Assembly: GCA_011524915.1 (NCBI GenBank)
Contig: WTJH01000039.1
Span: forward strand, 1 to 56,516
DNA: 56,516 nt
Reading direction: 5' to 3'
DNA from: Flavobacteriales bacterium
GTDB taxonomy: Bacteria > Bacteroidota > Bacteroidia > Flavobacteriales > Flavobacteriaceae
Part shown: positions 5,018 to 7,695 of the stretch, one piece after another
How the letters are laid out: each line of letters starts with the position of its first letter
Position numbering within the stretch: the stretch's first letter is position 1
Notes under the pieces: generated by a model
The model's database searches: none
Told to the model about the DNA's origin: nothing
What the model saw: only the letters and a program-made list of their open reading frames with translations
Program-made: the position numbers and the translations under genes

Positions 5018-6388
5018 TCAATTGCGAATACGATTGGCTTCCGAAACAAGAGCTTCATAGGCTGCTGAGGCCTCCCCATCTAGGGTGTTTTCGAGAAGAT
5101 CATTGGTTTGATCGGGATCAATATCATAACGGTAAAGGGCTTGATTTCCGTTGTCAAAAACCATCAATTTGTATTGCTCATTTCCTATAGTATAACCCGA
5201 TCGGTTGGGTCTGGAGCTCAATACTTCGGTGTAGTTGTAGCGGCGTTGGCCGGTATTCGAATTTTGGAATAAAGGGTAAAAACTCTGACTATCCAATTGA
5301 TCTTGTACTTCCAATCCCGCAATCTCTAAAAAGGTATTGTATAAATCGACATTGGTAATTAGCGCATCTTCTGTGACTCCCTGTCTGCTGACTCCTGCCC
5401 CGGAAATAACCATGGGGACATGTACTCCTCCCTGATATAGACTGCCCTTGGCTTTGCCATTAGAAAAGGGAGGCTGGACGACTTGCCCAGGGGAACCATT
5501 ATCTCCCAAAAAGACAATCACCGTATCGGCCAAAGTCGTGGAATTTACCGACGTAAACAATCGATTGATTTCATGATCAAGACTCTCGACCATCGCCAGA
5601 TAATAGGGAAGAGGATTCGCCTCTATACTGGATTCGTCGTTGGGTAAATCCCCTTGATTATGAAGGTTTGCTGGAGGAAGATGAAATGGGGTATGTGGCG
5701 CATTGTAGGCCAGCCAACAAAACCACGGAGACTCTTGCTCATTTATCCATTCGATCGCCAAATCAGTTAAGGCAGATGTGATATAAGAAGTCTGATTGGT
5801 CGACTGTCCATTAATGTTTAAAGACCAATTATCATAGCTTTCTACCCCTCCGGTATATAAACCCGCATAATACCCAATTCCCATTTCTTGGGGAACATTA
5901 GGAGAATTTCGGGCAGAAAGATGCCATTTACCGACGATACTGGTTTGATATGGAGAGTCGTTTAGCTCATTTAAAGAACGATGAATGGTTTGTTCGCTTG
6001 GATTGATCCTACCGGCATCTTCTGCGTTGAGCACTCCTGTTCGAAATCCATATCTTCCTGTGAGGATAGCGGCTCGTGTGGGAGAACATACCGGATTGGT
6101 CCATACATTGGTAAAACGAATACCCTCATCCATAAGTCGCTCAAGTGTTGGCATATGGGGTTTTTGTTCCCCAAAAGGATACCTTGGGACAGCATCTACT
6201 CCTAAATCGTCAGCAATAATAAAAAGTATATTGGAACGATTGGTATTTGTAGTTGGGGGATCCGTAATAGGTTCGCTCGGTTGTTCAAAAACATCTGTAG
6301 GAGGTTCTACTATTTCCGGGGCGGGACTCTCTTGTGAACACTGACTCAACAGCGGTAAAACAAAAAGATATAGAATATACTTTTTCAT
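5018..6388 (-). CDS. Formylglycine-dependent (S1 family) sulfatase, lipoprotein
   Basis: VCSPTRAAILTGRY (C-x-P-x-R motif), ILFIIADDLG, VGKWHL. Signal LPLLSQC. Start trimmed to MKKYILY at 6388 because the longer ORF-track version runs through the tRNA gene. Confidence 0.85.
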   Translation of the reverse strand: MKKYILYLFVLPLLSQCSQESPAPEIVEPPTDVFEQPSEPITDPPTTNTNRSNILFIIADDLGVDAVPRYPFGEQKPHMPTLERLMDEGIRFTNVWTNPVCSPTRAAILTGRYGFRTGVLNAEDAGRINPSEQTIHRSLNELNDSPYQTSIVGKWHLSARNSPNVPQEMGIGYYAGLYTGGVESYDNWSLNINGQSTNQTSYITSALTDLAIEWINEQESPWFCWLAYNAPHTPFHLPPANLHNQGDLPNDESSIEANPLPYYLAMVESLDHEINRLFTSVNSTTLADTVIVFLGDNGSPGQVVQPPFSNGKAKGSLYQGGVHVPMVISGAGVSRQGVTEDALITNVDLYNTFLEIAGLEVQDQLDSQSFYPLFQNSNTGQRRYNYTEVLSSRPNRSGYTIGNEQYKLMVFDNGNQALYRYDIDPDQTNDLLENTLDGEASAAYEALVSEANRIRN

Positions 6389-6483
6389 ATGATAACTCTG
6401 ATTTAAAAGTACATATAAATCATCAGGAATTTTTCTGAAATATATAAAGTCTCTTTTTTGAAATATGGTCCTAAATCTCAGGC

Positions 6484-6516
6484 AAAAAAAACACCTACAA
6501 TGATAATTGTAAGTGT
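6484..6516 (-). terminator. Rho-independent terminator downstream of tRNA-Ala
   Basis: Minus-strand sense: ACACTTACAAT-TATC-ATTGTAGGTGT. This is an 11-bp stem with one G-U pair, followed by a run of 7-8 T. Confidence 0.6.
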
Positions 6517-6528
6517 TTTCTGTGCTTG

Positions 6529-6602
6529 TGGAGAAGATCGGATTCGAACCGACGACCTCTTGACTGCCAGTCAAGCGCTCTAGCCAACTGAGCTACATCC
6601 CC
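6529..6602 (-). tRNA. tRNA-Ala (anticodon GGC)
   Basis: Reverse complement folds as a cloverleaf: GGGGATG/TA/GCTC-AGTTGGCTA-GAGC/G/CTTGA-CTGGCAG-TCAAG/AGGTC/GTCGG-TTCGAAT-CCGAT/CTTCTCC/A. The G3:U70 alanine identity pair is present. CCA is not encoded. Confidence 0.9.
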
Positions 6603-6835
6603 AAATTATTTTTTCGCCACCGTCTGCCGGCTGCGGATTTTAAATACTTTTCTCGTTCTCTGGCTAAGGTACGAGTTTCGTATTGTTCTGTATAAAGCAA
6701 TTCCCACGGCTGAAATGCTTTTGTCGATTGCACCTGACCTTTATTATGAGATTGCAATCTTTGATCGATGTTCTGCGTCATACCTATATAAAACCTCTGG
6801 TGTGATTTACTGTATAAGATATAGACCAAAAACAT
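6593..6835 (-). CDS. Small GIY-YIG nuclease family protein (COG2827/YhbQ-like)
   Basis: LVYILYS...RFYIGMT (GIY-YIG), DQRLQSHN, YTEQYETRTLAREREKYLK (conserved Glu region). 80 aa. The last 10 nt, including the stop, lie inside the tRNA-Ala gene. Confidence 0.75.
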   Translation of the reverse strand: MFLVYILYSKSHQRFYIGMTQNIDQRLQSHNKGQVQSTKAFQPWELLYTEQYETRTLAREREKYLKSAAGRRWRKNNLGM

Positions 6836-6894
6836 CCTATTTCTTTATGTCAAAGGGCGCTCCCCGCCCGAACGTGCCGTTCGGTACGGGCGGG

Positions 6895-6916
6895 TAGCCA
6901 ACTGAGCTACATCCCC
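6895..6916 (-). repeat. Orphan copy of tRNA-Ala nucleotides 1-22 (acceptor 5' strand through the D-loop)
   Basis: TAGCCAACTGAGCTACATCCCC is identical to 6581..6602. It lacks the rest of the tRNA. Confidence 0.9.
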
Positions 6917-6926
6917 GCTTGAAGCG

Positions 6927-6934
6927 CAAATGTA
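6927..6934 (-). promoter_or_regulatory. Bacteroidota-type -7 box TACATTTG; presumed ancestral tRNA-Ala promoter
   Basis: Matches TAnnTTTG. Ends 10 nt upstream of the orphan tRNA 5' fragment. No comparable box lies directly upstream of the intact tRNA. Confidence 0.5.
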
Positions 6935-6957
6935 CACTTTTCCGTTGAAAAGTTTCT

Positions 6958-7695
6958 TTAGTCTCGCGAATTAAGCTTCGCTAATAACCTTAGGATTTCC
7001 AGGTAGAGCCAGACCAAGGTCACCAAGAGTCCAAAGGCTGCATACCACTCCATATATTTAGGGGCTCCTCTTTCGGCTCCTTCCTCTATAAAATCGAAAT
7101 CTAAAACCAAATTAAGGGCGGCAATGATAACAATTACTACACTGATTCCTATACTCATGGGCGAACTGTTCATAGGATTTAAAACCCCCAATCCGCTTCC
7201 AAAGAAGCCCATAATAAAGTTGACTAAATACATTAAGGCAATGCCTCCTGTAGCTGCAAAAATTCCTAATTTAAAATTTTCGGTTGGTTTGATCCAGCCC
7301 GATTGATAGGCCATCAAAAGCGCCACTAAAATACTCAGCGTCAACAATATTGCTGTAGATACGATGCCTTCATATTGCGTATTAAAAACAAATGAAATCC
7401 CTCCCAAGACAGCCCCTTCCAAAAGAGCATAAATAGGGACGGTTATGGGTGACCACTCCTTTTTAAAAATGGTAATTAAAGAAACGATAAAAGCTCCAAT
7501 AAGCGCCGGAAACATAAATACCATTCCGCCTGCATTGAAGGTAAAATAGCCGGCTCCTACAAGTAGCACAAGTGAAATGGCTGTTTTATTTACGGCTCCG
7601 CTAATGGTCATTTGGTCCGAAACTGAGCTTTGTGTCTGAAACGTTTGAGAACCCAATACAGGATTCCCAGATCGCATGGATAAATGTTTATTCAT
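6958..7695 (-). CDS. Bax inhibitor-1/YccA-like integral membrane protein
   Basis: About 7 predicted TM segments. N-terminal MRSGNPVL..F motif typical of this family in Bacteroidota. 245 aa. Confidence 0.55.
   Translation of the reverse strand: MNKHLSMRSGNPVLGSQTFQTQSSVSDQMTISGAVNKTAISLVLLVGAGYFTFNAGGMVFMFPALIGAFIVSLITIFKKEWSPITVPIYALLEGAVLGGISFVFNTQYEGIVSTAILLTLSILVALLMAYQSGWIKPTENFKLGIFAATGGIALMYLVNFIMGFFGSGLGVLNPMNSSPMSIGISVVIVIIAALNLVLDFDFIEEGAERGAPKYMEWYAAFGLLVTLVWLYLEILRLLAKLNSRD

Follow-up and report, generated by a model that had tools for sequence, protein, structure and literature searches.

A stretch of 56,516 nucleotides (nt) from a Flavobacteriales bacterium (family Flavobacteriaceae; contig WTJH01000039.1 of assembly GCA_011524915.1), referred to here as the window, contains a small GIY-YIG nuclease gene that lies within the transcription unit of a tRNA-Ala(GGC) gene and is accompanied by a GC-rich hairpin. 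The best explanation that we can offer, to which we assign a probability of about 0.55, is that this locus belongs to a family of selfish cassettes of approximately 0.3 kb that reside in the transcribed leaders of tRNA genes in Flavobacteriaceae and other Bacteroidota, each combining an Ssn-like nuclease with its cognate hairpin. Their anatomy comprises a tRNA promoter, a pseudo-tRNA that extends from nt 1 to approximately nt 28-50, an A-rich linker, the open reading frame (ORF) and an intact tRNA that supplies the stop codon of the ORF; the pseudo-tRNA is split by one or two near-invariant hairpins at fixed positions of the D-arm, i.e., between nt 22 and 23 (hereafter 22/23, other insertion points being written in the same way) and/or at about nt 9-11. 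Across genomes, the loci display gain at empty tRNA loci of related genomes, local tandem amplification, change of the tRNA host and decay. The literature searched contains no description of GIY-YIG cassettes or genes embedded in tRNA genes, and this pattern of nuclease and hairpin, which is widespread and very regular, appears to be undescribed.

In the window, the first-pass annotation, which was made from the sequence alone, had described an intact tRNA-Ala(GGC) on the minus strand, an exact duplication of its first 22 nt located 314 bp upstream, an 80-codon GIY-YIG ORF in the same orientation and a GC-rich hairpin between the two copies, as well as a single good promoter box 10 nt upstream of the distal copy. 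All of these elements were recovered (Table 1). The tRNA, which is the only one in the window, is intact according to ARAGORN, and the 22-nt sequence GGGGATGTAGCTCAGTTGGCTA has exactly two copies in the window, whereas none of 100 dinucleotide-preserving shuffles yielded a match even when three mismatches were allowed. The ORF, situated between these copies, ends with AAT AAT TTG GGG ATG TAG, the last 10 nt of which are nt 1-10 of the tRNA, such that the TAG stop codon corresponds to tRNA nt 8-10. The hairpin is an imperfect palindrome with a GC content of 78%, whose extended arms occupy positions 6859-6873 and 6884-6898. The promoter box TACATTTG is the sole TAnnTTTG on the minus strand within positions 6450-7000, and TAnnTTTGCRSCC-like boxes are found in many related loci, 8-25 nt upstream of the first fragment.

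Two statements about the boundaries of the duplication needed revision. Sequence similarity had been said to stop abruptly on both sides of each copy, which is right except after the hairpin, where the tRNA similarity picks up again with GAGCGC (tRNA nt 23-28), followed by a degenerate TTGAC that corresponds to the anticodon stem; likewise, the hairpin and the ORF do lie between the copies, but they are accompanied by this tRNA-derived GAGCGC. Since the tRNA sequence resumes past the hairpin, the 22-nt boundary is the point at which the hairpin interrupts the tRNA and not the end of a duplication. The upstream "orphan" is thus the 5' part of a pseudo-tRNA split by a hairpin at 22/23 rather than a clean 22-nt duplication, and the 314-bp repeat unit, which here consists of the hairpin, nt 23-28, the linker, the ORF and nt 1-22, is equivalent to an insertion at tRNA position 22/23 that rebuilds the tRNA. 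One might ask whether the 22-nt duplication or the ORF is a spurious product of assembly or annotation, and several contigs of the same species do break inside the repeat (L086-L088 and L090; labels beginning with L denote the loci and contigs compared here), which suggests that assemblers struggle with it. However, the identical structure is present in at least seven independent metagenome assemblies of the species of the window, and the architecture is found in 80 other genomes and many metagenome contigs. Such an artefact, which the first-pass annotation had listed as a possible refutation, is therefore excluded, with practically no chance left for it.

The arrangement is a general trait of the family. 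Hundreds of close homologues of the ORF exist, mainly 80-85 amino acids (aa) in length and mainly from Flavobacteriaceae. When one genome was scanned for each GTDB species, at least 505 loci were confirmed to encode such a protein, and 80 of them were retrieved; together with the window, the sample comprises 81 loci and 95 full-length units, 90 units having an evaluable upstream region. A tRNA is present in 78 of the 81 loci, the other three being contigs that end at the ORF or approximately 120 nt past it (L066), and in 71 of the 78 tRNA-bearing loci the last unit ends no more than 10 nt from tRNA +1 on the same strand. The hosts are tRNA-Ala(GGC) (34 loci), tRNA-Arg(TCG) (25), tRNA-Arg(ACG) (15), tRNA-Met(CAT) (3) and tRNA-Val(GAC) (1). 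The ORF always runs into the tRNA, with its TAG stop codon at nt 8-10 in the case of Ala, Met and Val and at nt 21-23 in the case of Arg. A hairpin of the form CCCGCC(C/T)G...C(A/G)GGCGGG is located within 140 nt upstream of 88 of the 90 units. An exact copy of the first 22 nt of the local tRNA precedes 36 of the 90 units and a copy with no more than two mismatches precedes six more, while the first 9 nt are matched exactly in 38 of 90. The first-pass annotation had proposed to ask whether further copies of the ORF are flanked by a duplicated tRNA 5' segment; the homologous ORFs are indeed linked to tRNA genes, and ahead of most units stands a copy of the local tRNA's 5' end.

The fragment mirrors the local tRNA down to lineage-specific substitutions (L016, L020 and L063). 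Beyond the hairpin, the pseudo-tRNA continues from nt 23 of the local tRNA to approximately nt 28-39 (nt 35-39 in units of the Arg type) and to about nt 49 in L016 and L074. At 11 loci, two or three full tandem units, all with a fragment and a hairpin of their own, stand before a single tRNA, and in these arrays a hairpin lies on both sides of an ORF. Metagenome contigs that were found via the hairpin present the order of hairpin, ORF and tRNA again, at tRNA-Phe(GAA), tRNA-Ala(CGC), tRNA-Ala(TGC), tRNA-Asp(GTC), tRNA-Arg(CCT) and tRNA-Val(GAC). In addition, a mirror-image form occurs at tRNA-Arg(CCT), in which the intact tRNA is followed by the ORF and then by the 3' part of a pseudo-tRNA with hairpins in the D-loop (22/23) and/or the T-loop. 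Four rearranged Flavobacteriaceae loci (L005, L021, L054 and L069) obey the same logic, and the common rule is one intact tRNA and one hairpin-split pseudo-tRNA with the ORF in between.

Two main types of hairpin were distinguished. Type B (CCCGCCCGTACCGAACGGYACGTTCGGGCGGG) is positioned exactly at 22/23, whereas type A (CCCGCCTGAACGAATTCATTCGGGCAGG) is found at 10/11 or 11/12 in Ala and Met units, and a related hairpin at 9/10 in Arg units. Some units have both types, some lack nt 10-22 between two hairpins, and some hairpins are nested in other hairpins, which suggests that the hairpins themselves are mobile. Type B shows conservation of at least 90% at 29 of its 32 positions, in loci with synonymously saturated ORFs. 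The sequence itself, and not pairing alone, is conserved far beyond the needs of base pairing, which points to recognition by a protein. As a correction to the first-pass annotation, the hairpin is no incidental feature but a near-invariant component of the units.

Apart from the cassettes, the hairpin also exists as an independent dispersed repeat. In the 444 kb of Flavobacteriaceae loci, 109 of 128 matches to the hairpin pattern lie within 130 nt upstream of an ORF, so that the hairpin would seem exclusive to cassettes there; as a general statement this was rejected by a scan of Joint Genome Institute (JGI) metagenomes with the 32-mer, which returned at least 120 contigs (L102-L221) from soil, sediment, freshwater and marine samples. 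Solitary hairpins occur in the D-loops of tRNAs or tRNA-like sequences at 22/23 on either strand, and many are found in short heptamer tandem repeats (GTTCCWG, CAGTCGG and CACAAAG). Others lie in the loops of other inverted repeats, a flanking stem of at least 5 bp being present in 12% of cases versus 5% in shuffled pairings; this enrichment is modest, and specific insertion into the loops of other hairpins was therefore rejected. Insertion positions vary, including 7/8, 9/10, 11/12 and 22/23, as well as position 31 in L102.

The protein encoded by the ORF is a single-domain GIY-YIG nuclease. Its Pfam match to PF01541 scores 63.5 bits against a cut-off of 22.6 and covers residues 2-73, and no second domain was detected by Pfam, NCBIfam or PHROG in the 80-aa protein, which is spanned entirely by this one domain. 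In an alignment of 24 diverse members, residues Y5, Y16, G18, R26, H30, N31 and E62 are invariant, and so is a C-terminal block, REKYLKSAAGRRWRK; the protein has a conserved basic tail (KSAAGRRWRK). The AlphaFold2 (AF2) model (pLDDT 95.5) has a GIY-YIG fold with the order beta-beta-alpha-beta-alpha-alpha, and its top Foldseek matches are UPF0213 and Slx1 (TMq 0.66-0.71), followed by the catalytic domain of I-TevI. Internal stop codons are present in six of the 95 units. The median ratio of nonsynonymous to synonymous substitution rates (dN/dS; pairwise Nei-Gojobori method, 471 usable pairs) is 0.24, which indicates that the ORFs are under purifying selection and that the protein is probably kept functional. 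Automatic gene calls for the window and for L081-L100 start at the internal Met19 and yield a product of 62 aa in which the GIY motif is lost, whereas the conserved form has 80 aa. Other roles and origins were considered for the protein and set aside: PADLOC gave only weak partial matches to the GIY-YIG parts of larger proteins, which offers no case for a defence system; no relatives were found among 2.9 million viral contigs, and PHROG returned only a weak generic match to "endonuclease", which leaves a phage origin without basis; and plasmid carriage is limited to two distant homologues, one of them from Azospirillum.

Among known systems, the Ssn family comes nearest to the cassettes, and it provides the mechanistic precedent that the first-pass annotation did not know of. 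SsnA of Neisseria meningitidis is a 94-aa single-domain GIY-YIG protein assigned to cd10448 ("GIY-YIG_unchar_3"), which binds the hairpin repeat NTS/SRM only when it is single-stranded DNA (ssDNA) and cleaves immediately upstream of the repeat (Chenal et al. 2025, PMC11893778). The same study found that SsnA also cuts when the hairpin is assembled from two separate ssDNA oligonucleotides, that SsnA and NTS modulate transformation in Neisseria and that ssn genes are mostly flanked by hairpins, the authors remarking on the resemblance of NTS-ssnA-NTS to an insertion sequence; it contains no mention of tRNA, Bacteroidota or Flavobacteria (PMC11893778). In both systems, the gene of a single-domain GIY-YIG protein of approximately 80-100 aa (80 aa here) that has no DNA-binding domain is flanked by a hairpin that is conserved, GC-rich and 20-50 nt long, and the same hairpin is also a dispersed repeat. 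Unlike ssn genes, the cassette gene forms part of a tRNA transcription unit, where it separates a hairpin-split pseudo-tRNA from the intact tRNA that lends it a stop codon; furthermore, the cassette hairpin is found in both orientations, and tandem arrays, empty sites and decay bespeak a selfish life cycle.

The best homologue of the ORF in a plasmid database is a 97-aa protein of Azospirillum lipoferum encoded between sufB and sufC. At this locus (L222; plasmid AZO_p3 of strain 4B, positions 255506-255799), an inverted pair of perfect SRM hairpins (CGTCATCCCCGCGAAGGCGGGGATCCAG) stands on each side of the gene, and the regular expression of the published SRM motif has four perfect matches around it. 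The profile of the cassette family scores this protein at 46.1 bits (positions 2-74, 73 of 80 aligned), a Bacillaceae protein of the UPF0213/YazA type at 36.9 bits, and the UPF0213 proteins of the Protein Data Bank (PDB) at 33.4 and 28.8 bits. Since the score is highest for the SRM-flanked Azospirillum protein, we regard the cassette family as Ssn-like, i.e., as the same kind of nuclease-hairpin pair with a hairpin sequence of its own, an assignment for which there is one bridging sequence. The Azospirillum gene itself resembles an Ssn-type element inserted into an operon.

Related genomes differ in the state of this site. The contig L091 of a metagenome-assembled genome (MAG) encodes a BaxI protein 91% identical to that of the window and has the same upstream genes, but there BaxI is followed at a distance of 78 nt by a plain tRNA-Ala(GGC) that lacks the fragment, the hairpin and the ORF. 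The orthologous site is therefore filled in the window and in L081-L085 and empty in L091, a presence/absence polymorphism of the kind that the first-pass annotation had proposed to look for. The cassette is present in every contig whose BaxI protein is at least 98% identical to that of the window; for BaxI orthologues with 73-89% identity, synteny is lost and no tRNA is adjacent. In L101 (2779-3164), which is of the same species and has the window's own BaxI and promoter region, the ORF has decayed through a CAG-to-TAG change, a 4-nt deletion and another indel, while the fragment, hairpin and tRNA remain intact. The downstream flank of L101 differs from that of the window and matches the flank of the empty L091, which suggests recombination at the tRNA. 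Copy number varies within the species as well, with two identical 314-bp units in tandem in L081 and one in the window and five other contigs. Fragments of ORFs or decayed 3' ends (...AAAATAATTT followed by GGGG) lie upstream of many "first" fragments, and ORF-less units adjoin some tRNAs.

Most tandem units are near-identical, with synonymous divergence (dS) of 0-0.2. The exception is L026, in which unit 1 differs from units 2 and 3 with a dN of 0.22 and saturated dS and is closest to units in other genera; here two unrelated cassette lineages are stacked at one tRNA. In three genome pairs with orthologous flanks, cassette dS is 0.33-0.51, whereas dS of the flanking genes is 1.4-2.5. In Arenibacter pairs, the dS of the cassette reaches or exceeds that of the flanks, and the synonymous sites of the ORF are therefore not intrinsically constrained. 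The lower dS of the cassettes than of their flanks thus points to the arrival of some cassettes later than the split of the host lineages. Identity between ORFs is 0.60-0.67 within a tRNA type and 0.58-0.63 between types, and the ORF tree mixes tRNA types and tracks them only weakly, which is not what strict co-divergence of nuclease clades with tRNA type would give. The tRNA host has therefore changed many times.

For a selfish cassette, the most likely course is the following. The tRNA promoter would drive a single precursor that contains the pseudo-tRNA, the ORF and the tRNA, the whole unit being read from this promoter because there is no room for another between the ORF and the tRNA. Cleavage by RNase P at tRNA +1 would leave the mRNA without its stop codon and throttle synthesis of the nuclease, so that full-length protein would be made from unprocessed transcripts only and its level would be kept low. 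By homology, the protein is expected to act as an Ssn-like hairpin-directed nuclease on ssDNA with the conserved hairpin as its cognate site, which may be recognised when DNA becomes single-stranded during replication, heavy transcription or the entry of transferred DNA. A break or nick near the hairpin, in the D-arm region, could provoke recombination. Two long homology arms would be available for it, one formed by the pseudo-tRNA and the flank upstream of it and the other by the intact tRNA and the flank downstream, and gene conversion would copy the unit into empty alleles of related genomes. Unequal or misaligned exchange between the 22-nt repeats may expand or contract arrays, and exchange on the other side of the hairpin may generate the mirror-image and rearranged forms. 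The hairpin would also cut the direct repeat into pieces of no more than 22 nt and 13 nt and disrupt any nuclease site in the non-functional copy.

The interpretation in the first-pass annotation, a homing-like selfish element that inserted into the D-arm region while regenerating the 5' part of its target, is partly supported: a minimal D-arm cassette with a rebuilt tRNA 5' part, the use of the tRNA promoter, the selfish character and the absence of intron and integrase all stand, while the role of the hairpin, the length of the duplication and the question of precedent had to be corrected. Several points weigh against the selfish cassette. The mechanism is inferred at all of its steps. In filled chromosomes, the rebuilt tRNA amounts to an uninterrupted "target", and the simple logic of homing, in which insertion destroys the site, is inapplicable; nor does the proposed course account for the re-tailoring of the tRNA-derived flanks upon a switch of tRNA species. 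The published SRM motif, HGTCWYN(0-2)YYVSBRHN(0-5)WNVSBRGN(0-2)RNCYNB, has no match in the 444 kb of related loci, and the cassette hairpin was accordingly rejected as an SRM of the Ssn type. Type B hairpins stand 17 times in one orientation and 11 times in the other, while SsnA is strand-specific. Among the metagenome contigs listed, 109 of 130 hairpin copies have no detectable GIY-YIG ORF nearby, and the hairpin may simply accumulate in any tolerated pseudo-tRNA, outside a mobile unit. A pattern for the exact empty junction found no empty allele of the window's species in JGI metagenomes. Finally, the signal of horizontal transfer rests on ORFs of 75 codons in three genome pairs.

Three other explanations bear on the same evidence. 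It is doubtful that the cassette is a passive passenger, i.e., that a partial tandem duplication of a tRNA captured a small ORF that uses the tRNA promoter, that an unrelated hairpin resembling a miniature inverted-repeat transposable element hit the dispensable pseudo-tRNA with a preference for tRNA-like loops, and that ordinary recombination did the rest, the nuclease being irrelevant to mobility. Such a course fits the mostly near-identical local duplicates in tandem arrays, the difference of exactly one repeat between loci with one and two units, the resemblance of L021, L054, L069, L179, L199 and L208 to products of recombination between tRNA repeats, and the presence of the hairpin alone in many contexts, including tRNA D-loops and the loops of inverted repeats (12% versus 5% in shuffles). 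However, the ORF-hairpin-tRNA arrangement has more than 10 tRNA species as hosts and homologous ORFs throughout, which requires repeated precise relocation rather than one accident, and the end of the ORF always abuts tRNA +1. Moreover, the invariant catalytic residues and the dN/dS of 0.24 suggest that nuclease activity has been maintained, and a hairpin in 88 of 90 units is too regular for random hits. A service to the host, with the nuclease as a domesticated modulator of ssDNA recombination or uptake like SsnA/NTS in Neisseria, the tRNA leader as a convenient and strongly transcribed place and the pseudo-tRNAs as by-products of recombination at hairpins, is likewise unlikely. It would agree with the documented Ssn function in Neisseria (PMC11893778), with the purifying selection on the ORF, with a protein that is nearer to the SRM-flanked Ssn-type protein than to UPF0213 and with the dispersal of the hairpin in many metagenome contigs that lack the ORF. 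It is at odds with the patchy distribution, which includes empty sites, pseudogenes within the same species, variable copy number, decayed units and stacked unrelated lineages, and with a Flavobacteriaceae hairpin that is nearly confined to cassettes (109 of 128 matches) and has one copy in the 56-kb window, which would leave few other sites to regulate.

The third alternative concerns the source of specificity. We think it improbable that nucleic acid supplies it, i.e., that the tRNA fragment and the hairpin, as ssDNA or RNA, position an Ssn-like nuclease on a single-stranded cognate tRNA gene, where a nick would be repaired with duplication of the 5' (or 3') part of the tRNA and copying of the cassette. 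If true, this would be a programmable homing system without integrase or intron, and it would explain how one protein family colonised more than 10 tRNA species and why a mirror image exists at tRNA-Arg(CCT). The stricter form, in which the fragment of 22 nt with the hairpin as a handle is an RNA or ssDNA guide or template that directs the 80-aa nuclease to the cognate tRNA gene and a host switch amounts to a change of fragment, strikes us as very improbable. The exactness of the fragment to the local tRNA, including the lineage-specific substitutions in L016, L020 and L063, speaks for it, as do the weak tracking of tRNA type by the protein phylogeny, the absence of any protein domain beyond GIY-YIG and the cleavage by SsnA of a hairpin built from two ssDNA oligonucleotides (PMC11893778). 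Yet the exact identity is equally well explained by gene conversion or recent insertion, the position of the hairpin varies (7/8, 9/10, 11/12 and 22/23, and 31 in L102) in a way that makes the length of the "guide" inconsistent, and the hairpin occurs in both orientations. A guided GIY-YIG enzyme would be without precedent, and self-targeting of the resident tRNA would be problematic.

When tyrosine-integrase islands and prophages integrate into a tRNA gene, they restore its 3' end. The cassettes resemble such elements in using a tRNA gene as a landing site, in duplicating part of it and in leaving an intact tRNA and an orphan fragment at the other junction. Unlike them, the cassettes have no integrase or other recombinase, the 314-bp unit holding just the 80-aa ORF; their direct repeat (exactly 22 nt) is the 5' part of the tRNA and not the usual 3' part, and a hairpin interrupts their orphan copy. 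Among free-standing GIY-YIG homing endonucleases, SegB of phage T4 is encoded in a tRNA gene cluster (PMC2330249). Seg-type genes share with the cassettes an intron-less GIY-YIG nuclease gene among tRNA genes, presence/absence polymorphism between relatives and recombination in flanking homology as the proposed route of spread. Seg proteins, however, exceed 200 aa and have a C-terminal DNA-binding domain, whereas the cassette protein of 80 aa ends without one; Seg genes lie between genes, with no part of a tRNA duplicated and no cognate hairpin, and the host of the cassettes is the bacterial chromosome, none having been found in viral contigs. A group I intron with a homing endonuclease was rejected, as the tRNA is uninterrupted, Rfam finds only the tRNA and the NCBIfam model for group I intron endonucleases scores 18 bits against a cut-off of 56.

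Hairpin-recognising ssDNA enzymes, namely RAYT with REP/BIME and TnpA of IS200/IS605, were cited as an analogy for Ssn (PMC11893778). As in the cassettes, a small enzyme gene is tied to palindromic repeats that are also dispersed. In contrast to these systems, the cassette enzyme is a hydrolytic GIY-YIG nuclease and not a Y1 (HUH) transposase and cannot rejoin DNA alone, and the cassettes have a tRNA-embedded organisation. By sequence and fold, the best matches of solved structure are the structure-specific GIY-YIG nucleases UPF0213/YhbQ/YazA and eukaryotic Slx1 (1ywl, 1zg2 and Slx1; TM approximately 0.7). UPF0213 genes, however, are single-copy members of housekeeping operons, e.g., yabA-trmN6-yazA-rsmI (seen in L223), without association with a hairpin or tRNA, whereas the cassette gene adjoins a tRNA, varies in presence and occurs in several copies, also in tandem.

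Ssn-type nucleases were characterised in 2025, and the family described here is a related one with a clear and very regular tRNA-embedded life style, which ties a hairpin-nuclease pair to selfish spread and provides the hairpin, the pseudo-tRNA and the intact tRNA gene as testable substrates. Many Bacteroidota tRNAs would come from precursors with a translated nuclease mRNA as their 5' leader, and a stop codon inside the mature tRNA would make tRNA processing and nuclease synthesis mutually exclusive for each transcript. For annotation, the consequences are that the ORF is truncated to 62 aa, that pseudo-tRNAs and hairpins go unannotated and that assemblies break at the repeats. In biotechnology, an 80-aa nuclease with a 32-nt hairpin, if the two are cognate, would extend the ssDNA tool kit proposed for Ssn enzymes.

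Table 1. Positions of the elements of the tRNA-embedded cassette in the window, from the promoter box to the terminator, and of the mirror-image loci
Feature	Position	Strand	Remarks
Bacteroidota-type -7 box TACATTTG	6927..6934	-	Presumed tRNA promoter, now ahead of pseudo-tRNA, ORF and tRNA; function inferred; ends 10 nt before the upstream fragment
Pseudo-tRNA nt 1-22 (acceptor 5' strand, D-stem 5' strand, D-loop)	6895..6916	-	Exact copy of 6581-6602, 314 bp apart
Type B hairpin CCCGCCCGTACCGAACGGCACGTTCGGGCGGG, 32 nt, inserted at tRNA 22/23	6863..6894	-	Sole copy in the 56.5-kb window
Pseudo-tRNA continuation GAGCGC (nt 23-28, D-stem 3' strand)	6857..6862	-	Read from the sequence
A-rich linker/5' untranslated region with degenerate TTGAC (anticodon-stem remnant)	6836..6856	-	Sequence
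80-aa single-domain GIY-YIG nuclease ORF	6593..6835	-	PF01541, E 2.4e-17
Intact tRNA-Ala(GGC)	6528..6602	-	ARAGORN; Rfam RF00005, 6529-6602, 67.6 bits
AT-rich stem-loop with T8, likely terminator of the tRNA transcription unit	6484..6516	-	Read from the sequence
Mirror-image loci (metagenome contigs)	L179 9950-10500; L199 4200-4760; L208 7220-7880; L129		

With regard to transcription, the likely terminator was not called by a consensus terminator scan, which demands at least three G-C pairs in the stem. The GC-rich hairpin was rejected as a terminator, as it has no U-tract and the downstream tRNA depends on read-through. A second promoter between the ORF and the tRNA was also rejected for want of room: the sequence AATAATTTG at the end of the ORF is one base short of TAnnTTTG, and a start from there would lie within the tRNA. 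Scanned with Rfam, the region and four related loci yielded only tRNA, with no riboswitch, group I intron or known small RNA. The neighbours of the cassette are the BaxI gene and a sulfatase gene. In the mechanical ORF list, the sulfatase ORF (5018-6574, minus strand) runs through the terminator into the tRNA from a TTG start at 6574; the true start is most likely the ATG at about 6388 (MKKYILYLF...), and the overlap with the tRNA would then be an artefact of ORF listing.

Cassettes are also present in bins labelled as other phyla, namely L003 (a Chlorobiota MAG), L075 (a Ca. Scalindua MAG) and L066 (a KSB1 single-amplified genome, SAG). In L003, the proteins encoded by the flanking genes share 80-90% identity with those of the Flavobacteriaceae contig L005, and the bin assignment of L003 is therefore probably wrong. 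Downstream of the tRNA in L004 (3350-3440) and L056 (3490-3580), the hairpin stands in a common context, GGTTTGCAG..GCGG.GTCACTGCGGAC, then the hairpin, then CAAC.A.GTTAATCCG, for which Rfam gave no match. In L138 (five copies), L190 (three) and L202 (three), the hairpin lies within a longer repeat, between TCAGCCAGGCAGGGTATAATTCAGTAAGCGTTACTCGACG and AAGCATCCGG..., with a spacing of 1.2-3 kb. In arrays of the Arg type (e.g., L019 2684-3551; protein P0053), the hairpin replaces nt 23 at internal junctions, which turns the TAG stop codon into TAC, and the ORF reads through the hairpin to gain a C-terminal extension (...RGATEYPPVPERGRVVVIE).

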